Source: an uncultured Barnesiella sp.
Lineage (GTDB): Bacteria; Bacteroidota; Bacteroidia; Bacteroidales; Muribaculaceae
Reading direction: 5' to 3'
Assembly (NCBI GenBank): GCA_964544595.1
Contig: CAZJBM010000005.1
Coordinates: 1,324-65,323 of the forward strand
Length of the DNA stretch: 64,000 nucleotides
The stretch's first letter is position 1. Every line of letters begins with the position of its first letter. A model generated the notes under the pieces. That model was given only the letters and a program-made list of their open reading frames with translations. It did no database searches and was not told where the DNA came from. The translations under genes and the position numbers were made by a program. Shown one piece after another: positions 2,721 through 39,136 of the stretch.

Positions 2721-5033
2721 ATGAAAAAGTATATAATCGGATTAATCACTTTATCATCGGCAATATCTGGCTATGCCATTGACGCGCCGCAGAGTCAGTC
2801 CGACAAGCCGCGAATCATCATATCAACCGATATTGGTGGCACCGACCCCGACGATAATCAGTCGATGACTCATCTACTAATGTACAACAACCTCTTCGAC
2901 ATAGAGGGAATCGTTTCGTCGCCTTCTTTTGGCAACGGCAGCAAGGAGGAAATCATACGCATGATTGAGCTTTACGCCAAAGACTACCCCAAGCTTGCCT
3001 CGCGTCAGGAGGGATTTCTCTCTCCCGATTCCCTTATCGCAATCTGCAAGCAGGGTAACAAAACCGCCGCCCCCTTTGCGGGATACTCATTACTGACCGA
3101 AGGGTCGCGACATATATCGGAGTGCGCGCTCAGGGAATCTGACCGACCTCTATGGATACTTGTGTGGGGCACGCTCGACGACCTCGCGCAAGCGCTCCAC
3201 GACACCCCTGAGATAGCTTCGCGCATTCGCGTATATTACATCGGCGGCCCGAATAAGAAGTGGGGGGCCGACAGTTATGCCTATATCGCTAAAAATTTCC
3301 CCAATCTTTTCTTCATCGAGAACAACGCGTCTTATCGCGGCTTCCCATCAAGCCCCAACGCCGAGGGAATTTTCCAAAAAGACTACTACGAGACTTTTAT
3401 GCGTGGCGCGGGAGCTTTAGGCGCGGACTTCAAGAAATACTACGACGGGGTGGTAAAAATGGGGGATTCGCCGTCGCTTTTCTATCTCATGAAAGGAGAT
3501 CACGATAACCCGGAGGCTGACTCATGGGGAGGCAGATTTGAGCGCATCAGCCACTCTCCCCGCCACCAATTCAAAATCTCGGATGGGGCAAAGAATACGG
3601 CAACCACGTATTCGATCGTTGAATTCACTTTCAATGGCCCTTCAGTCAAAATTCCTACTGACTCAGCCTGCGTGACGCTCCATATCGACAAACAGGATTG
3701 GCCGGGCTATTATGCGGGAAAAGGTAAATATATAATCCGCTACAGCCCGAAGGCCCCCGGCAACCTTGAGTACACTATCACTTCACCTTTGAATGGTTTC
3801 AAGACCATCAAAGGTGAGCTTAGGGTCGAAGGCACCTTTCCAGGAGAGAGATCTAAAAACGACTACCGACTGGGCAAAAATTGGTACACCGACGTGAGCG
3901 ACCCCGCAATGGCGTCGGGCAAATGGCAGGGCGCGAAAACTATCGGCGCGCACCGAGAGGAGATTTTAAGCGACTGGGTAGAGCGACTTAACTGGATAAA
4001 GGACGACAGCATGGCCAACGCCGGAAAGAAGTCGATAAGAGTCGCCGACAGCGAGTTTTTCAAGACCGAGGAGGCGCGCCGAATCGGCAATCAGATAATT
4101 GCCTATCAACGCGCCACAGGCGGCTGGCCCAAGAACATCAATATGTCGATACCTTTCTCGGCGACCGAAGCTCAGAGCATTCTCGCCGATAAGGGTAGAA
4201 CAGATGACTCGACTACCGACAACACCGCCACAACCACACAAATATACTATCTCGCCCGGCTTTATAACGCAACAGGCGATGACGTTTACCGTAAGGGGGC
4301 TGAAGACGGGATACGCTTTCTGCTCGCCGGACAATATGATAACGGCGGCTGGCCCCAATTCTGGCCTAATCCCCACGGATACCAGATCCACATCACCTTC
4401 AACGACGACGCTATGACCAACACAATGGCACTGCTCAACCGCGTTTCGCACTCAATGGAGCCCTTCGACACCGACATTATCAGCGACGAGCTGCGACAAT
4501 CATCTAAAACGGCATTTGACAAAGGAGTGGAATGTATTCTAAAATGCCAGATTAAAGTTGACGGGAAGCCGACTGTTTGGTGCCAACAGCACGACAGAGA
4601 CACATACGCCCCTGCACCTGCAAGAGCGTTCGAGTTAGCGTCCTACTGCTCCTCGGAGAGCTCTGCTATCGTTTGGTTGCTGATGGATATACCCGACCCT
4701 TCGCAAGAAATAATCGATGCGATCGATGGCGCGATGAGATGGTTTGAAAAGTATAAGATCGAGGGAATAAGAATTGGATCAGATGGCGAAATCGACGGCA
4801 AGAAGAATCATATAGTGGTCAACGACGAGGCGGCTGAGCCTATATGGGCGCGTTTTTACGACTTGGTTGAGTGTGAGCCTATGTTTTGCGACCGCGACGG
4901 CATACCGCGCAAATCAATGGCAGAGATCGGTCCTGAACGCCGCAACGGATATTCATGGTATTCCTACGGACCGTCGTATCTCTATCCCCGATATAATGAA
5001 TGGAAATCAAAATTGACAACTAAAGCTAAATGA
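2721..5033 (+). CDS. pelA: Secreted fusion: DUF1593 (nucleoside-hydrolase-like) domain + family PL10 pectate lyase
   Basis: Signal peptide; RIIISTDIGGTDPDDNQS (DUF1593); C-half GGWPKN, TTDNTAT, DNGGWPQF, ITFNDDAM, WCQQHD, WARFY (PL10). Confidence 0.8.
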   Translation: MKKYIIGLITLSSAISGYAIDAPQSQSDKPRIIISTDIGGTDPDDNQSMTHLLMYNNLFDIEGIVSSPSFGNGSKEEIIRMIELYAKDYPKLASRQEGFLSPDSLIAICKQGNKTAAPFAGYSLLTEGSRHISECALRESDRPLWILVWGTLDDLAQALHDTPEIASRIRVYYIGGPNKKWGADSYAYIAKNFPNLFFIENNASYRGFPSSPNAEGIFQKDYYETFMRGAGALGADFKKYYDGVVKMGDSPSLFYLMKGDHDNPEADSWGGRFERISHSPRHQFKISDGAKNTATTYSIVEFTFNGPSVKIPTDSACVTLHIDKQDWPGYYAGKGKYIIRYSPKAPGNLEYTITSPLNGFKTIKGELRVEGTFPGERSKNDYRLGKNWYTDVSDPAMASGKWQGAKTIGAHREEILSDWVERLNWIKDDSMANAGKKSIRVADSEFFKTEEARRIGNQIIAYQRATGGWPKNINMSIPFSATEAQSILADKGRTDDSTTDNTATTTQIYYLARLYNATGDDVYRKGAEDGIRFLLAGQYDNGGWPQFWPNPHGYQIHITFNDDAMTNTMALLNRVSHSMEPFDTDIISDELRQSSKTAFDKGVECILKCQIKVDGKPTVWCQQHDRDTYAPAPARAFELASYCSSESSAIVWLLMDIPDPSQEIIDAIDGAMRWFEKYKIEGIRIGSDGEIDGKKNHIVVNDEAAEPIWARFYDLVECEPMFCDRDGIPRKSMAEIGPERRNGYSWYSYGPSYLYPRYNEWKSKLTTKAK

Positions 5034-5353: not shown

Positions 5354-6154
5354 CTAAGAGCCTGTCCCCCCTTTGGGCTGATTAGGGTTGTTGGCCTGCG
5401 ACTTGATGTAGTTTTTAACCTGCTGGAAGAGATTTGTGGCGAATACAAAGTCGTTTAAGGCCTCGTTTGAGGTGTCGAAAATAAGCTTATTGTCGCCTTG
5501 CCAGTCGCAGTAACCCTTGTTAATGAAGATGATGTTCTCGCCTATACCGAGCACAGAGTTCATATCGTGGGTATTGATAATGGTAGTGATATTATATTCA
5601 TGAGTAATATCACTCAGGAGCTCGTCGATCACGATAGACGTGCGAGGATCGAGTCCTGAATTAGGCTCGTCGCAGAAAAGATATTTAGGATTCAACGCGA
5701 TGGCGCGGGCAATGGCCACGCGCTTCTGCATACCGCCCGATATTTCCGACGGATATTTGTTTTCAGCCCCTACAAGATTCACGCGCTCGATGCAGAATTG
5801 GGCTCGCTCGCGGATTTCCTCGCGGCTCATGTCGGTGAACATGGTGAGAGGGAACGACACATTGCCCATCACTGTCTCAGAATCAAAAAGTGCCGACCCC
5901 TGAAACAGCATACCGATTTCCTTACGTATTTCGCGCGTCTCGGTAGCGTTCATCTTCATTATATCGCGCCCATCATAAAGTATCTGACCCTGCTCTGGAC
6001 GTATAAGGCCGATGAGCGATTTCATCAACACTGTCTTACCCGAACCGCTCTGACCGATGATGAGGTTGGTTTTACCCGTATAAAATGTTGCGGTGACATC
6101 GTGGAGCACGGTCTTATCTTCAAACGATTTTGTCACATTTTTTACTTCGATCAT
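5354..6154 (-). CDS. mlaF: ABC transporter ATP-binding protein, MlaF/Mkl family
   Basis: GQSGSGKT Walker A, ISGGMQKRVAIARA signature, LFCDEP; coupled to mlaE. Confidence 0.9.
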   Translation of the reverse strand: MIEVKNVTKSFEDKTVLHDVTATFYTGKTNLIIGQSGSGKTVLMKSLIGLIRPEQGQILYDGRDIMKMNATETREIRKEIGMLFQGSALFDSETVMGNVSFPLTMFTDMSREEIRERAQFCIERVNLVGAENKYPSEISGGMQKRVAIARAIALNPKYLFCDEPNSGLDPRTSIVIDELLSDITHEYNITTIINTHDMNSVLGIGENIIFINKGYCDWQGDNKLIFDTSNEALNDFVFATNLFQQVKNYIKSQANNPNQPKGGTGS

Positions 6155-18788: not shown

Positions 18789-20558
18789 TTATCGCTTGAC
18801 GGAGATTAGGGCATTGCCGTTGGCAGCGGGGTTCCAGCCGTCGGCGCCGCTCAGCACTTCTTCAGGTGAATAGCCCTTAGCTGATTTGAGCTGCTTGGAG
18901 AATTTCGCTCTCTGAGCGGGGGCTGCGCCTTCACCCTTGCTTCCATACTCCATGTAGCGCGCAGTCTTTTCGTTGGACTTCTTGCCCCAGTTATGCCATC
19001 CCTCAGGTACGATATGTCGACCCATATCGCAATTGATATACACGGCCTTGGCGTAGGGTCGCCATGGGCGCGAGAGATACACCTTGTCCACGCCTGGATC
19101 GGCGGTCAGATTGCAGTCGATGAATGTGTAGCCATATTCCTGCTCCTGGTCGGTAGAGGGCGCGGTAACGTAACCGTTACCTTTGCTGTGAAGCTGACAG
19201 CGGTTGAATAGGGCGTTTGACCATCCGAATATAAAGTCAACCGTGCCCTCAATGTAGCAGTCTTCGTAATATTGACGGTCGCCTTTGCTGTAGGTGTAGA
19301 GCGTGTCCTGATTGCCGAGGAAGCGGCAGTTCTTGAAATAGTCGCGGTCGCCGCTAACGAAACAAGCCACAGCCTGACCTACCTGTCCGGCAGTATTCTC
19401 AAAGGTAATGTTCTCGGCGTAGAAATCAGGGGCATAGATATAGGCAGTTGACGAGCCGGAAGTCGACATCTCTGAGCCGAGAGAATTGAGTTTTGAAGCA
19501 TAGCCGTCGTTAGTTATCACCGCTCCGGTCTGGCCAAGAAGCGAGACGTTGATTTTCGACGGAGCGACGATAAGTTTCTCCTTATATTCACCGGGGCGCA
19601 CGAGGATAGTGGTGCGCACGTTTTTACGAAAATCGGGCACCGCATCGATAGCGTCCTGCACCGTGAAGAAATCGCCGCTGCCATCCTTAGCCACAACGAA
19701 ATCGTAATGACGTATATAGGGTTTCAGTTCGGGAACAGCCTCGCCGATAGCATCGACGGTAAGATTGGTAATCACGCGGCCACCATGGATATTGAGGTGA
19801 GTGTTATCCTCGCGTCCTTTGGGAATCGCAGCCACCGTGTTAGGCTCCACCCATACGAACAGGCTTTTGGAAGCTTCGGGACCCATCCCCTCGATAAGGT
19901 CGCGCGTTATGGCGTTCATATCCACAAATGCGACACCCATTTCGCGGGCCACGTTGCGGGGAGAGTCGAGATAAGCTCCGTGGGTGTCGATAAGTTTCGC
20001 GCCGGCGGCCACAACCTCGGGAGCGCCGTTTGGCTCGCGCTTCGCATCGGGGTTGATATAAAACGCATCGTCTTGATTGATGGCGTTGGCCAATGCGGCA
20101 GTATCGGCAGCGGCTGTGCCGAAGTTGCGACGGACAATAGAGTTGAAAAGCACAGGGATACCACCCTTTGCGCGGGTCTCGTTAACGAATTTACGCAGAT
20201 TGTCGTCGAATGTCGTGCCTGGATCGGTATGGCGGTCGGCCTTCGGCTTCTCGTCGTTGTGGCCAAACTGGATGAAGACGTAGTCGCCGGGCTGAATTTT
20301 CTCAACAACAGCATCCCAACGCCCCTCGTCGATGAAGCTTTTCGACGATCGGCCATTAACGGCATGGTTATCAACGGTAATCTCTTCGGAAAGGAATCCG
20401 GGGAGCATCTGACCCCAGCCACGCTCGGGATTGTCGCCGTCGAGTTTCTTATTGGCCATTGTCGAGTCGCCTATCATAAAGATGGTTTTAGCCTCGGCAT
20501 TGAAAATAGCGGCCAATGATAGCAATGCAGCCGCTAAAAAGGTAATTCTTTTTCTCAT
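18789..20558 (-). CDS. Fusion: SGNH/GDSL pectin acetylesterase (CE12-like) + pectin methylesterase (CE8)
   Basis: IGDSTM, GRSSKSF, QFGHND, DNTH (SGNH); VAKDGSG, GQAVA, QDTLY, GTVDFIFG, LSRPW (CE8). Confidence 0.9.
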   Translation of the reverse strand: MRKRITFLAAALLSLAAIFNAEAKTIFMIGDSTMANKKLDGDNPERGWGQMLPGFLSEEITVDNHAVNGRSSKSFIDEGRWDAVVEKIQPGDYVFIQFGHNDEKPKADRHTDPGTTFDDNLRKFVNETRAKGGIPVLFNSIVRRNFGTAAADTAALANAINQDDAFYINPDAKREPNGAPEVVAAGAKLIDTHGAYLDSPRNVAREMGVAFVDMNAITRDLIEGMGPEASKSLFVWVEPNTVAAIPKGREDNTHLNIHGGRVITNLTVDAIGEAVPELKPYIRHYDFVVAKDGSGDFFTVQDAIDAVPDFRKNVRTTILVRPGEYKEKLIVAPSKINVSLLGQTGAVITNDGYASKLNSLGSEMSTSGSSTAYIYAPDFYAENITFENTAGQVGQAVACFVSGDRDYFKNCRFLGNQDTLYTYSKGDRQYYEDCYIEGTVDFIFGWSNALFNRCQLHSKGNGYVTAPSTDQEQEYGYTFIDCNLTADPGVDKVYLSRPWRPYAKAVYINCDMGRHIVPEGWHNWGKKSNEKTARYMEYGSKGEGAAPAQRAKFSKQLKSAKGYSPEEVLSGADGWNPAANGNALISVKR

Positions 20559-20642
20559 GGTAAGATAATATATGATTTTGACGCGAAGTTACGCAATTGT
20601 CGGGAGTTATTCGTAAATTCGCGTCACAAAAATCTCACGTCA

Positions 20643-21386
20643 ATGATAGGAATGATATTCGCCGCAGGGCTCGGCACCCGACTTAAGCCATTCACTCTGA
20701 GTAATCCGAAGGCACTCGTGCCAGTAGGTGGCCGACCGATGCTTCAACGGGTAATCGAGCGCATGAAAGAAGCCGGAATATCATATATTGTAATCAATGT
20801 GCATCACTTTGCGGAAAAAGTCATCGACTTCCTGAAGGAAAACGACAACTTCGGCATTGAAATCAGGGTAAGCGACGAAAGCGATCTGCTGCTCGACACC
20901 GGCGGCGGGATAGCCCACGCCGTTCCGCTGCTTGAAGCGGGAGAGCCGATTCTCGTTCATAACGCCGACATATTGACTGACTTCTCTATCAAGGAAATGG
21001 CTGAAGCGCACGAACTGAGCGGTGCCGACGCGACTTTGCTTTGCGCGGAGCGTCAGTCGTCAAGGATGCTTTATTTCGACGAAAACGACAATCTGGTCGG
21101 CTGGCAGAATCTAAACACAGGCGAGACCCGGCCCGCAGGTTTCACGCCCGACCGAAGCATGAGACCGCTTGCATTTGGTGGGGTACATATCATTTCACCA
21201 AATTTACTGCAGGATTTTGCAGCAGAGAGCGAGCGAAATGGACGAGTGTTTTCGATCATACCTTTCTACCTCAACATTATTAACCGACACGAAATAAAAG
21301 CATGGACACCGAGCAAAGGCTTTAACTGGTATGACGTAGGCAAACCGGAAACCCTCGCCGCCGCCGAAAAATATCTAAGCGACTAA
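20643..21386 (+). CDS. Sugar-phosphate nucleotidyltransferase (MurU-like)
   Basis: [38 protein letters not shown]. Confidence 0.85.
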
Positions 21387-34171: not shown

Positions 34172-36730
34172 ATGGAAATAAATTTCTCTGACAAGCTCAA
34201 GACCGCGCTCGACAACAGCCGCCGCGAGGCCGCTCGCCACAACAACGCGACAGTCACCCCGGCCCACCTGCTTCTCGCGCTTATCGCCAACCCCGCCTCC
34301 CGCGCCGGGTCGATACTTGAGAAGATAGCCCGCGAAGTGTCGGTCTATCAGTTGCAACAGCAGCTCGACAGCAGCCTATTTGACTCGCAGCCCCATTCGT
34401 CGGCCGAAATCGCCATCAGCGACCTCGCCAACCGCCTTGTGCGCCTCTCGGTGTTAGAGTCGAGGATGATGCGCAGCGACGTTGTCGACGAGGAGCATCT
34501 CCTCATGGCGATATTCCACAACTCAGAGGTGCAGCAGATGGAGTTCATGAAGCCCTTCCGCGACGCCGGCATCACCTACGAGGCCATATACTACTCTCTG
34601 GCCAACAAGCCCGAGACCCCTTCGGCCGGAGCCGGATACAGCGAGGACGAGGAGGATGACGACGACGATATGCCCGGCGGGGGAGCGACCTCGTCGCAGA
34701 GCAAATACTCTTCGGGCAAAACGAAGTCGAACACCGGCGACACCCCGGCTCTCGACAAATTCGGCAACGACATGACCCGCCTCGCCGAGGAGGGGCGTCT
34801 CGACCCGGTCATAGGCCGCGACAACGAGATCGAGCGTCTCGCCCAGATACTCTCGCGCCGCAAGAAGAACAACCCGGTGCTTATCGGCGAGCCCGGCGTG
34901 GGCAAATCGGCCATCGTCGAGGGCCTGGCGCTCCGTATAGTCCAGCGCAAGGTTTCGCGCATACTCTTCGACAAGCGCGTGATCTCGCTCGACATGGCTT
35001 CGCTCGTGGCCGGAACGAAATACCGCGGCCAGTTTGAGGAGCGTCTAAAGTCGATACTCAACGAGCTTGCCAAGAACGACAACATAATCCTCTTCATCGA
35101 CGAGCTCCACACCATAGTCGGGGCGGGCAACGCAGCCGGGTCGATGGACGCGGCCAACCTTCTGAAGCCCGCTCTCGCCCGAGGCGAAATACAATGCATC
35201 GGCGCCACGACGCTCGACGAATACCGCAAGAACATCGAGAACGACGGCGCGCTCGAACGCCGCTTCCAGAAAGTGATGGTAGAGCCGACTTCGCCCGAAG
35301 AGACCCTTGAGATTCTCCGCAACGTTAAGGATAAATACGAGGCGCACCACAACGTCAACTACACCGACGAGGCCCTCAGAGCGTGCGTCAACCTTACCGA
35401 GCGCTACATCTCTGACCGCACCTTCCCCGACAAGGCCCTCGACGCCCTCGACGAAGCGGGGTCGAGAGTCCATGTCACCAACATACGGGTGCCTGAGGAA
35501 ATCGAAGCGCTTGAAAACCAGATCGTGACAGCCGGCGAATCGAAGCTCGCCGCGGTGAAAAACCAGAATTTCGAGCAGGCCGCATCGTTCCGCGACAAGG
35601 AGACGCAGCTCAAGAAGCAGCTCGAAGAGGCCAAGAAGCAATGGGAAGCGCGACTGGCCAACGAGCGCGAGACCGTCGACGACGAGAAGGTGGCCGAGGT
35701 GGTAGCGATGATGACGGGAGTGCCCGTGCAGCGCGTGGCGCAGGCCGAAGGCACCCGCCTCAAGGCGATGAACCCTCAGCTCAAATCGGCCATCATAGGC
35801 CAGGACGCGGCTATCGATAAGATCGTGAAGGCGATACAGCGCAACCGCGTAGGGCTTAAAGACCCCAATAAGCCGATAGGCACGTTCATGTTCCTCGGCC
35901 CGACCGGCGTCGGCAAGACCCACCTCGCCAAGATGCTCGCCGAATATCTCTTTGACTCGGCCGACACGCTTATACGCATCGACATGAGCGAGTACATGGA
36001 GAAATTCACCGTCAGCCGACTCGTGGGCGCGCCTCCGGGATACGTAGGCTACGAGGAGGGTGGACAGCTCACGGAGAAGGTGCGCCGACGCCCCTACTCG
36101 GTTGTGCTGCTCGACGAGATTGAGAAGGCCCACCCCGACGTGTTCAACCTCCTCCTCCAGGTGCTCGACGAGGGCCGTCTCACCGACTCGCTCGGCCGCA
36201 AGATCGACTTCAAGAACACGCTCATCATTATGACCTCCAACATCGGCACACGCCAGCTCAAGGATTTCGGCGCGGGCGTCGGCTTCAACACCCAGGGCAA
36301 GGTGAGCAAAGAGCAGAGCCACGGCGTGCTTCAAAAAGCGCTCAACAAGGCTTTCGCCCCCGAGTTCCTTAACCGTATCGACGACATAATCATGTTTGAC
36401 CCCCTCTCGAAGGAGGCTATCTACAAGATTATCGACATAGAGCTCGCGGGATTCTATAAGCGCATCGACCAGCTTGGCTACCGTCTCGACATCACCGAGC
36501 AGGCCAAGAGCTTCATCGCCGACAAGGGCTACGACCAGCAGTATGGCGCGCGCCCGCTGAAGAGAGCGATCCAAAAATATCTGGAGGACAACCTCGCCGA
36601 GATGATTATCGACGCCGACGTGAAGCCTGGCGACACTATCAGAGTGGAGCTCAACGAGGCCGGCGACGACGTGGTCTGCACCATAGTCCACCCCGAGCCT
36701 GAGCAGCAGCCTGAGCAGTCGGGCGAGTAG
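34172..36730 (+). CDS. clpC: ATP-dependent Clp protease ATP-binding subunit, ClpC type
   Basis: Clp-N repeats; [18 protein letters not shown]-like coiled coil, [28 protein letters not shown]. Confidence 0.93.
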
Positions 36731-36751: not shown

Positions 36752-36832
36752 GAACACAAAGAAACAGCAACACACGCTATAACGCATTATGCATCAATGC
36801 ATTACGGCGTGTGTTGCTGTTTCTTCCGTTTC
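36752..36832. repeat. 81-bp palindromic element, copy 1
   Basis: Perfect 19-bp stem aagaaacagcaacacacgc / gcgtgtgttgctgtttctt; ends shared with copy 2. Confidence 0.8.
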
Positions 36833-38128
36833 TTAGGCTATACCGTTGATGATGCGAGAGACGGTAGTGCGGTTAGCCCCGATGCTGTCGGCGAATTTGC
36901 TGACGTTGCGGATAGGGTAGTGGCTATGAATGAGCTTAATGGCATCGCTCTTCGACAACTCCATCAGAGGAGCCTGCCTGGCCTTTATCACCGAGTAGAC
37001 TCTCATCGCGTTCCTCTCGAAGCAGAGCATAAGAGCGGCGGCGTCGGCCATAGTCTCGCCCGGAATGGTGAAAATCACGTCGAGATCAACCCCGTATGCC
37101 TCGTAGCCCCCTCCGGCGTAGCAGAGATTTGAGGCCACGTTGAATAGGTGGAGTATGCCGGCTATGCGCAGTATCTGTATCTGGCATTTCGAGTAGACCG
37201 AACGCTCGTAGTCGCATTTGGCCGCGTATTTCTTTACCTGGAGATCGTTATAGTATTCGATATAAACCTCTTTGGCTTCTTTGTCGGGAACGAGAGGGCG
37301 ATTAGTAGGGTTACTGAAGCGCGAAAACTCGCGGATATACGCCTCCCAGTGTTTTTGCAGCTCCTCGTTAGGCAAATCCTCGCTGTAAAGCCCATAACTC
37401 GGCGAGTCCTCGTAGTTGAAGAGAAACCTCTGGTTGAGGCCGTTGGCGAGAAACTTAGGGTCGCCAAACGCCTTGCTCAACAGAGCGGGCTGTATGTCGC
37501 CTATGATGTTCATAAACGGATTGCGTATATCCCAGGGATTATCGTCGCTCTTACGGTTGACGCTTATATCATCGCCGTCGTAGATACGGAGGAGCTTCGC
37601 GCTACCGTCAGATGCGCTATAACGGCTCATATCGTCGAAAAAGCCTTTTATCTCAGGGTAGTAACAGAGAATACCTTTAGGATTGTTGTGAATCACCTTA
37701 AGGCGGGCTTCCTCGGTAGAGTCACTGATAATAAGCTGATGACATACAGGTATAGGATCGTCAGGCCCTGCTTTTGCCTTCTCCATCTTGTATTGGTCGA
37801 TCATCTCTCGGTTTATATCAAACAGGGGAGCGAGCACCTTTCTTACGGGAGCCGTCTTGTTAGTGCCGCTCTTAGCCACGTTAACCATCCACAGCATCAA
37901 CGGATTATCATACTTGCCGTCATATACATGAACCTTGTTTCCTATCACCGACGATGCGGCTACCAACACAGCCGACGTCACGAAATCTCTCGGGCACTGA
38001 TACGTATAAGCAATATCGGCTATGAACTGACTTATCTTCCCCGGAAATACCTCTATAGGTAGCTCTTCAAGAAAACCGCCGCCGCAGGCAGTATCCACCT
38101 CATTAATCTTATCTTTCTCCATATTCAC
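36833..38128 (-). CDS. DUF3987 (YfjI-like) protein with C-terminal HTH, typical of integrative elements
   Basis: LPIEVFP, LWMVNVAKSGTNKT, ISDSTEEA, PKGIL, IIGDIQP, GLNQRFLF; C-terminal SKFADSIGANRTTVSRII. Confidence 0.75.
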   Translation of the reverse strand: MNMEKDKINEVDTACGGGFLEELPIEVFPGKISQFIADIAYTYQCPRDFVTSAVLVAASSVIGNKVHVYDGKYDNPLMLWMVNVAKSGTNKTAPVRKVLAPLFDINREMIDQYKMEKAKAGPDDPIPVCHQLIISDSTEEARLKVIHNNPKGILCYYPEIKGFFDDMSRYSASDGSAKLLRIYDGDDISVNRKSDDNPWDIRNPFMNIIGDIQPALLSKAFGDPKFLANGLNQRFLFNYEDSPSYGLYSEDLPNEELQKHWEAYIREFSRFSNPTNRPLVPDKEAKEVYIEYYNDLQVKKYAAKCDYERSVYSKCQIQILRIAGILHLFNVASNLCYAGGGYEAYGVDLDVIFTIPGETMADAAALMLCFERNAMRVYSVIKARQAPLMELSKSDAIKLIHSHYPIRNVSKFADSIGANRTTVSRIINGIA

Positions 38129-38274
38129 AACTTATTTTACATTATATGATTGCTTTATCAATCACACCACAAAGTTATGACCGCGGGGAGCGGAAAATGT
38201 GCGAAAAAGAAACTTTCGATTATCGGGCACACGCCAATGCGTCGGGCTTAGGCCGAGGCGAGGGCTTAACCCAT

Positions 38275-38355
38275 GAACGCAAAGAAACAGCACACATCAG
38301 TCTAAGCGACTATCAATCATCACGTTACACCGTATTGTGCTGTTTCTTTCGTTTC
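38275..38355. repeat. 81-bp palindromic element, copy 2
   Basis: 14-bp stem aaagaaacagcaca / tgtgctgtttcttt; aligns without gaps to copy 1. Confidence 0.8.
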
Positions 38356-38482
38356 CGGGGCAGAAATGTTTGGATAATTGGTTAATAATTAGTAACTTCG
38401 CGGTGCTTTTGAATAAAGCTCCCGTGTGATGGGAAATTAAGAACTACTTAATTTTGAGTAACACAATTAATCAAATTCAATC

Positions 38483-39136
38483 ATGAACACTTACAAACTC
38501 GCAGCCGAGCCCCGCACCGACCTCGGCAAGAAAGCAACCAAAGCTCTCCGCGCCGAAGGTAAAATCCCCGCAGTGATCAACGGCGGCGAAATCGTAGAAC
38601 TCCCCTTCAACGGCACTCTCGCCCCCGGCCAGAAACTCGTTGAAATCGAAGACGGCAAAGGTATCATCACTACCGACATCACCCTCACTCAGGAGGGCGT
38701 GCGCAAACTCATCTACACCCCCGACATCTACGCAGTGGAAATCGACATGAACGGCAACAAGAAAATGGCCGTGCTCAAAGAAGTGCAGTTCCACCCCGTG
38801 AAAGACACCGTGCTCCATATCGACTTCCTCGAAGTAGGCGACAAGAAGCCCGTTGTTGTTGAGGTTCCCGTTAAGCTCGAAGGCCACGCCGAAGGTGTTA
38901 AAGCCGGCGGTAAGCTCTCGCTCTCGATGAAGAAACTCAAAGTTCGCGCCATATATACCGAAATCCCCGAGCGCCTCATCATCAATGTCGACCACCTCGG
39001 TCTCGGCAAGAGCCTCGCGGTCGGCGACCTCCACTTCGAGGGTCTCGAACTCGTCAACGCTAAGAACGCAGTCGTTTGCGCCGTTCAGCTCACCCGCGCC
39101 GCCCGCGGTCAGCAGGCTGCCGCAGCCAACGCTTAA
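38483..39136 (+). CDS. rplY: 50S ribosomal protein L25 / Ctc
   Basis: GKKATKALRAEGKIPAV, KEVQFHPVKD..LHIDF, EGVKAGG; TAACTTCG at 38393-38400. Confidence 0.96.
   Translation: MNTYKLAAEPRTDLGKKATKALRAEGKIPAVINGGEIVELPFNGTLAPGQKLVEIEDGKGIITTDITLTQEGVRKLIYTPDIYAVEIDMNGNKKMAVLKEVQFHPVKDTVLHIDFLEVGDKKPVVVEVPVKLEGHAEGVKAGGKLSLSMKKLKVRAIYTEIPERLIINVDHLGLGKSLAVGDLHFEGLELVNAKNAVVCAVQLTRAARGQQAAAANA

Follow-up and report, generated by a model that had tools for sequence, protein, structure and literature searches.

Two palindromic elements flank a lone DUF3987 gene in a Muribaculaceae chromosome: candidate iteron units of a stripped replication module

The DNA analyzed here, called the window throughout, is a stretch of 64,000 nucleotides (contig CAZJBM010000005.1 of assembly GCA_964544595.1, positions 1,324 to 65,323) from an uncultured Muribaculaceae species filed as Barnesiella sp., whose L25 and ClpC proteins are ~80% identical to their closest relatives. 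Between clpC and rplY, the window carries a single gene of the DUF3987 family (PF13148) flanked by two palindromic elements, which we call copy 1 and copy 2. In the following, the anatomy of the elements, their occurrence around homologous genes and the part they may play together with the encoded protein are described.

The Two Palindromic Elements

The gene and the two elements are arranged as follows, with coordinates given in the window.

36752–36832, unstranded: copy 1 (unit D), 81-bp palindrome adjoining the DUF3987 stop codon, with 21 nt between it and the stop codon of clpC
36752–36755 GAAC, 36761–36765 GAAAC, 36819–36823 GTTTC and 36828–36832 GTTTC: short repeats of copy 1
36833–38122, minus strand: DUF3987 gene, an intact open reading frame (ORF) of 429 amino acids (Pfam E-value 2e-50)
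38275–38355, unstranded: copy 2 (unit U), 81-bp palindrome upstream of the DUF3987 gene
38275–38278 GAAC, 38284–38288 GAAAC, 38342–38346 GTTTC and 38351–38355 GTTTC: short repeats of copy 2

Copies 1 and 2 are equal in length, have the same orientation and align without gaps. Their 18-nt ends are nearly identical, with 17 of 18 positions matching on the left and likewise on the right (94%), whereas the 45-nt cores match at 22 positions (49%), which is above chance (P ~0.001): the cores of the two copies are homologous, but far more diverged than the ends. Such a difference would follow if the ends were read by a single protein. Each arm holds the GAAC/GAAAC-type repeat twice, 9–10 nt apart, and the repeats are opposed across the variable core. 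Moreover, the four arms account for all four occurrences of the 11-mer AAGAAACAGCA in the 64 kb, where 0.02 would be expected. Copy 1 forms a hairpin with 30-nt arms that are 90% complementary, 19 nt of them perfectly, and copy 2 forms one with a 14-bp perfect stem and a weakly palindromic core; these are the two longest hairpins of the window, and the fold z-scores of both elements lie between -6 and -10. The GC content of the cores is 42–44%, as compared to 51% for the window and 0.57–0.60 for the flanking genes. A preliminary description of the locus, made from the letters alone, had reported the equal length, the shared orientation, the gapless alignment, the conserved ends beside diverged cores, the separate hairpins of 19 and 14 bp and a DUF3987 stop codon abutting copy 1, and all of this was borne out, the hairpins by folding and the last by the position of the stop codon at 36833–36835, which touches base 36832 so that copy 1 begins at the very next base.

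No other copies of the elements are present within the 64-kb window. A wider search for the end motif, as proposed in the same description, was no more productive: the three exact-pattern scans of genome, metagenome and viral contig collections returned unrelated hairpins only, and the source species is absent from the genome representatives. Rfam gave only below-threshold, spurious microRNA-hairpin matches for the elements, and no target-site duplication is visible, the flanks of copies 1 and 2 sharing none. A conserved hairpin of ~58 nt (AAAGAAACAGCAAAAGCCCCTGAAC...CCCATTTTGCTGTTTCTT) recurs in several genomes of Chitinophagaceae (Agriterribacter, Terrimonas and others; L002 1843–1901, L003 1194–1252, L006 5057–5114, L008 7860–7918 and L208 1990–2046); it has the same arm word as the window elements, apparently by chance.

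The DUF3987 Protein

The match of the encoded protein to the DUF3987 profile exceeds the curated cut-off, and the PHROG match is annotated as "DNA helicase" (E-value 8e-30). NCBIfam, PADLOC and a PDB sequence search returned nothing informative. The nearest DUF3987 homologues are ~40% identical; a single-sequence search of genome representatives found no close relatives, and the homologous loci used for comparison below were obtained by profile search. DUF3987 proteins were predicted earlier to be helicases of mobile elements (PMC5862659), and for one such protein, from a mobile element of Bacteroidota, 5'-3' helicase activity and binding to the neighbouring BT4734-type primase-polymerase were determined experimentally (PMC11724360). 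In the alignment, the motifs VNVAxSGSNKT and YYPEIKGFFDD are nearly invariant in the subfamily and are kept by the window protein, so that the nucleotide-binding motifs SG(S/T)NKT and PE..FFDD are conserved between them. The sequence AKSGTNKT and the PE in place of an expected DE, which had initially been taken for peculiarities, are thus normal for this subfamily. The structure model (pLDDT 84) predicts a C-terminal three-helix helix-turn-helix (HTH) at residues ~391–426, in line with the HTH suspected earlier, and its best fold matches are AAA+ subunits of MCM, at the level of a modest, weak match (E-value 2e-5, TM score 0.43).

The region upstream of the gene contains a putative promoter and one further repeat outside of the palindromes.

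38123–38274, minus strand: upstream region of the DUF3987 gene, 152 nt from the start codon to copy 2
38177–38170, minus strand: TAACTTTG, Bacteroidota -7-like box in the upstream region, putative promoter element
38206–38213: AAAGAAAC, solitary repeat near the -33 region of the putative promoter

GC content was considered as a sign of foreign origin and rejected, since the value for the gene (0.50) equals the window mean (0.51), though it is below those of clpC (0.60) and rplY (0.57).

Palindromes Recur at Homologous DUF3987 Loci

The comparison set consisted of 33 homologous DUF3987 loci, which are not all independent and represent at least 10 different arm sequences; same-sized windows elsewhere in these 33 loci served as background. 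A palindrome of 60–90 nt begins 0–30 nt past the DUF3987 stop codon in 25 of the 33 loci, as compared to 4% in the background (binomial P = 9e-29), and a second palindrome with the same arms is found at +155 to +185, around +170, in 14 of 33 (P = 9e-12). In most homologous loci, both units are located downstream of the helicase gene, and in at least 26 the two occupy the interval from helicase to primase gene, internal to the element, with fixed geometry. The module has the order small HTH_17 gene, DUF3987 gene and gene for a BT4734-like/PriCT_2 primase, with HTH_17 upstream in ~26 and the primase downstream in ~29 of the loci, and it resides in integrative elements of Bacteroidales along with integrases (tyrosine recombinases), ArdA and similar genes.

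Counted from the stop codon, the repeats of the homologues are positioned at about +14 (plus orientation), +80 (minus), +145 (minus), +178 (plus) and +245 (minus). The repeat word is specific to the element, namely GTTAAC, GTAAAC, GTCAAT, GTTGAC, GGTTGC or AGTCCTACTCG as compared to GAAAC in the window, and the gene-proximal arm usually has two tandem copies of it. The geometry is therefore fixed while the sequence of the repeat varies between elements. Furthermore, full-length alignments with both window copies were obtained for the units of 14 other loci. Complementarity is kept through two-sided changes at all 19 predicted arm pairs, and five columns of the arms are paired in each of the 16 sequences. 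Taken together, these comparisons support the view that the palindromes are linked to the DUF3987 gene family and are not generic repeats; repeats unrelated to their cargo, an outcome that would have spoken against the preliminary description, do not fit the recurrence at the homologues. The core of copy 1 contains AATGCATTGA, which is common to units of several homologous loci. Additionally, a motif of roughly CAATGCAYTGRAAAACAG is shared by the first-unit cores of L214, L023, L026, L221 and L225 and by positions 36786–36795 of the window despite different arm repeats, which suggests a second conserved site within the palindrome, for a host factor or for priming.

The layout of the window, with one unit upstream of the gene and one just past its stop codon, is found in three loci of the set, namely L217, L244 and L226. 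Loci of this type are without the HTH_17 gene and have a unit ~120–160 nt upstream of the start codon, the distance being 152 nt in the window, 159 nt in L244, 146 nt in L217 and 117 nt in L226. In L217, from a metagenome-assembled genome (MAG) of Sodaliphilus, the second unit begins 3 nt past the stop codon, and its units resemble those of the window in that they are equal in length, with identical ends of 16–18 nt and diverged cores. In L244, the closest homologue, two units of 83 nt precede the gene, the distance given above being that of the nearer one, another begins 5 nt past the stop codon, and the primase gene comes next. L226, from a Muribaculaceae MAG of the horse gut, is a second lone DUF3987 gene, positioned between a Sel1/SUKH gene and gmd (GDP-mannose dehydratase), with HTH_17 and primase absent; its upstream region (2408–2823) carries three palindromes with the repeat GGTTATA and a 50-nt AT-only stretch between units, and the single unit downstream (4404–4478) is almost the same as one of these three palindromes.

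Repeat Type and Helicase C-Terminal Domain Are Co-inherited

Across groups of homologues, the repeat type tracks the C-terminal HTH of the helicase, which could be explained by shared descent. A mosaic locus, L220, separates the parts of the module from one another. Between L220 and L019, nucleotide identity is 81.5% in the stretch comprising HTH_17 and the helicase up to residue ~373, and 77% from the primase onward, whereas no similarity is detectable over the last ~50 helicase codons and both units. The C-terminal 45 amino acids of L220, on the other hand, are 82% identical to those of L026 and L221, with which L220 has the repeat word GTCAAT in common, whereas its helicase core, HTH_17 and primase are 48–66% identical to theirs. 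The C-terminal domain and the units have thus been swapped jointly and without HTH_17, the helicase core or the primase: the repeat type is co-inherited with the C-terminal domain. As seen from the comparison of L220 4067–4460 with L019 and L026, the recombination block corresponds exactly to the helicase C-terminal domain plus both units, and it looks like a replication-specificity cassette within mobile elements.

Chromosomal Setting

The flanking genes delimit the segment closely on both sides, with 21 nt from the end of clpC to copy 1 and 127 nt from copy 2 to the start of rplY.

34172–36730, plus strand: clpC, convergent with the DUF3987 gene
38361–39136, plus strand: rplY with conserved promoter and leader (gene start at 38483)

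No integrase, relaxase, transposase or recombinase is encoded anywhere in the 64 kb, which agrees with what had been noted first about the surroundings of the locus, and neither an HTH_17 gene nor a BT4734-type primase is present in the window; all other window genes checked are housekeeping genes. A comparison with an empty clpC–rplY site, as initially proposed, found no counterpart: clpC is never upstream of rplY in the orientation of the window in 80 related rplY loci, and neither rplY nor a DUF3987 gene ever comes after clpC in 80 related clpC loci. The DUF3987 gene is therefore located at a lineage-specific synteny breakpoint, there is no empty site to compare, and the right-hand boundary alone can be placed. 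Going back from rplY, its promoter and leader resemble those of the 80 relatives as far as 38361–38387, just beyond copy 2. The segment is trimmed to within 21 nt of the units on the clpC side and to at most 13 nt on the side of the conserved rplY promoter. Such tight trimming is not obviously produced by random decay of a larger element; it might be due to selection holding the set together, to long palindromes acting as hot spots of rearrangement or to movement of the segment as a unit.

Ten other contigs carry the locus, nine of which are identical to the window. The tenth, L009, has 19 mismatches, all at the contig end in the leader and start of rplY and none in the elements or in the DUF3987 gene, and the available copies are therefore uninformative on variation of the locus. 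The mismatches of L009 fall within its first ~120 nt (window 38423–38515), and this end probably arose when the assembly joined DNA of another strain or species at a conserved stretch. In most of 37 relatives inspected, clpC is directly followed by a strong A/T-flanked hairpin unrelated to the palindromes, and five other hairpins of the window are located between convergent genes.

Discussion

Here, we propose that the palindromes are the cognate iteron- or origin-like pair of the DUF3987 helicase, retained in what is left of the replication module of an integrative mobile element from Bacteroidales, a reading that we regard as fairly probable. The module would consist of the gene for a self-loading-type helicase, with an MCM-like AAA+ core and a C-terminal HTH, plus two cognate palindromic iteron units. 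Following this, the C-terminal HTH would read the repeats, the protomers would assemble symmetrically on the palindrome and, in an intact element, this assembly would open the DNA for the partner BT4734-type primase-polymerase; the units would be the origin in the intact element and probably the operator too. The primase, the HTH_17 gene and the integrase being absent from the window, the module is no complete replicon. Copy 1 probably doubles as a bidirectional terminator for clpC and the helicase gene, since it is positioned between convergent genes like the five other window hairpins. The binding of the HTH to the units, their origin function and any present-day activity are inferred from sequence comparison and analogy, and binding of the elements by the protein's own HTH, which the preliminary description had offered as a possibility, is now favoured by the comparative evidence. 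The stripped integrative element considered there is kept in part: the locus does look like a stripped replication module, but the palindromes are unlikely to be the ends of the element, as they are internal in at least 26 homologous loci.

Several characterized replication systems are comparable. The Rep helicases of staphylococcal pathogenicity islands (SaPIs) are self-loading, their C-terminal winged helix reads island-specific iterons, and these iterons directly follow rep and number two or more per side, in opposite directions (PMC9371898). The homologous loci resemble this arrangement in the helicase gene followed at once by the candidate origin, in the opposed short iterons, in the putative C-terminal DNA-binding domain and in the adjacent primase gene. 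In the window, copy 1 is a site immediately downstream of the helicase ORF, and both copies have at least two opposed short repeats per side (with a word of 4–5 nt), whereas an AT-rich region between the repeat sets is clear in L226 only, the window cores having a GC content of 0.42–0.44. SaPI Rep differs in being of the DUF927 type with 3'-5' polarity, while the one assayed DUF3987 member is 5'-3', and SaPIs have one origin with a central AT-rich region, while here there are two separate palindromic units of ~75–81 bp, one per side of the gene in the window. The alpha primase-helicase of satellite phage P4 binds two separate iteron clusters, ori and crr, via its C-terminal domain, and both are needed in cis; these are direct octamer iterons and not palindromic units, however, and the protein belongs to another family. 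The Sulfolobus plasmid pRN1 depends for its replication on a stem-loop of ~100 nt that follows the primase-helicase gene and whose structure, but not sequence, is conserved (PMC4234260). The likeness is that of a stem-loop downstream of a replication gene (orf904), but pRN1 is archaeal, its primase is fused to an SF3 helicase, and a single stem-loop without defined short repeats is present.

Closest in protein family is the AgaPP/AgaPH pair, proposed as the replication machinery of a Bacteroidota mobile element (PMC11724360), which combines a DUF3987 helicase with a BT4734-like primase, as in the homologous loci. AgaPH differs by an N-terminal PriCT domain, and its gene follows that of the primase; the window is without a primase. 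The text of that study makes no mention of a replication origin or iterons (PMC11724360), and an origin or operator of the iteron type that goes with a self-loading helicase, which we favour for the palindromes by analogy, would thus be an addition to it.

Several observations weigh against this interpretation. Binding and replication roles in this DUF3987 subfamily are themselves inferred, and the likeness of the model to the MCM fold is modest (TM score 0.43). An N-terminal PriCT domain, present in the published DUF3987 helicase (PMC11724360), is absent from the window protein. The repeat word of the window, with 4–5 nt, is too short for a standalone statistical test, and the cores are only moderately AT-rich (42–44% GC); in contrast to L226, the window shows nothing that is evidently an unwinding element. 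Moreover, the C-terminal coding region adjoins the units, so that one recombination event carries both regardless of any interaction between them. Finally, the composition of the gene (GC 0.50 against a window mean of 0.51) is no mark of foreignness, and the available copies of the locus are all identical and so give no measure of selection on the ORF.

Among the other explanations, it is unlikely, though not far-fetched, that the units are an operator or insulator alone, bound by the helicase HTH or another protein of the module and controlling transcription of the helicase gene and its neighbours with no part in an origin. The solitary repeat near -33 of the putative promoter would suit this role, as would the unit ~120–160 nt upstream of the start codon in the bracket-type loci, which do not have HTH_17, and the lack of a clear AT-rich unwinding element in the window; the fixed geometry of both units between helicase and primase genes in at least 26 loci, as in the SaPI and pRN1 origins, and the AT-rich stretch between the L226 units argue for an origin instead. 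Ordinary terminators, with copy 1 acting bidirectionally between clpC and the DUF3987 gene and copy 2 being a duplicate or a former clpC terminator stranded upstream of rplY, appear improbable to us. The left arms are rich in A and the right arms in T, giving U-rich tails on both strands, and hairpins are found between convergent genes elsewhere in the window and after clpC in most of the 37 relatives. However, copy 2 is located in a divergent promoter region with nothing there to terminate, a consensus terminator scan called neither element, and terminators explain neither the 94% identical ends beside 49% identical cores nor, in the homologues, the second unit and a solitary repeat downstream of the gene, the tandem arm repeats and the C-terminus-linked repeat words.

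That the elements are recombination sites, whether attC-like, REP- or PATE-like or ends of a miniature inverted-repeat transposable element, and that unit, gene and unit form a cassette moved by an enzyme acting in trans, was a leading idea of the preliminary description and is now very improbable. It is true that the segment is tightly bounded (21 nt to the clpC stop codon and at most 13 nt to the rplY promoter), that the clpC–rplY junction is unique among 160 related loci and that a second lone, unit-flanked gene, L226, exists in a different chromosomal context. Also, the elements share with integron attC sites the similar size, the position of an imperfect palindrome at the 3' end of a gene, the conserved ends and the variable centre. 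The R''/R' box consensus of attC is RYYYAAC ... GTTRRRY, whereas the ends of the elements read ...GAAC and CGTTTC-TTA or CGTTTC-CGG, with no purine run after GTT, and the attC assignment was rejected. An integron cassette was rejected as well, there being no recombinase in the 64 kb: integron integrase, attI and cassette array, RAYT, HUH and other transposases are all absent from it. Neither a target-site duplication nor further copies, be it in the window or in the collection scans, were found, and most relatives show both units together to one side of the gene, within a larger element. Leftover attL and attR sites of a decayed integrative element are barely credible: the homologues do reside in integrative elements with tyrosine recombinases, and the window gene is isolated, but the units of intact relatives are internal, in the gap between helicase and primase genes, and not terminal. 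Each window unit is moreover a complete palindrome and no hybrid of two arms, the ends are conserved here while att cores are normally conserved mid-site, and the window has no integrase.

Returning to the origin-like pair, it is conceivable, if rather doubtful, that the set of unit, helicase gene and unit is no debris but a minimal working chromosomal device that has arisen at least twice, in the window and in L226. Such a device might be a helper-dependent mini-replicon fired by the primase of a related element, an incompatibility or decoy locus at which incoming related elements would have their helicase titrated or mis-loaded, or a segment moving as a unit via its palindromes. With L226 as a second lone example, these device and mobility readings retain a low probability. 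A replication module that was stripped down and lies at a synteny breakpoint would be more ordinary than an exotic cassette. If the proposal is correct, it provides a candidate origin for DUF3987/BT4734-type systems, namely paired palindromes of 70–80 bp with element-specific repeats whose specificity travels with the helicase C-terminal domain, which would aid the annotation of very common elements of gut bacteria, predict incompatibility or cross-activation between elements and open a way to replicating vectors for Muribaculaceae and other Bacteroidales.

Other Features of the Window

The leader of rplY is near-invariant across Muribaculaceae and consists of GTGTGATGGGAAATTAAG, a variable loop and CTTAATTTTGAGTAACACA, forming a stem-loop with a variable apical loop. 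It is located at 38385–38470 in the window and was found in 14 of the loci L030–L109, aligned at ~5900–6000. No Rfam family matched at E ≤ 1, and the stem is invariant and hence displays no covariation; it may be an autoregulatory leader of L25. Furthermore, an 18-nt inverted repeat, TTTTGACGCGAAGTTACG / CGTAAATTCGCGTCACAA, is present at 20576–20629, between the divergent genes at 18789–20558 (minus strand) and 20643–21386 (plus strand), and may be an operator unrelated to the palindromes.

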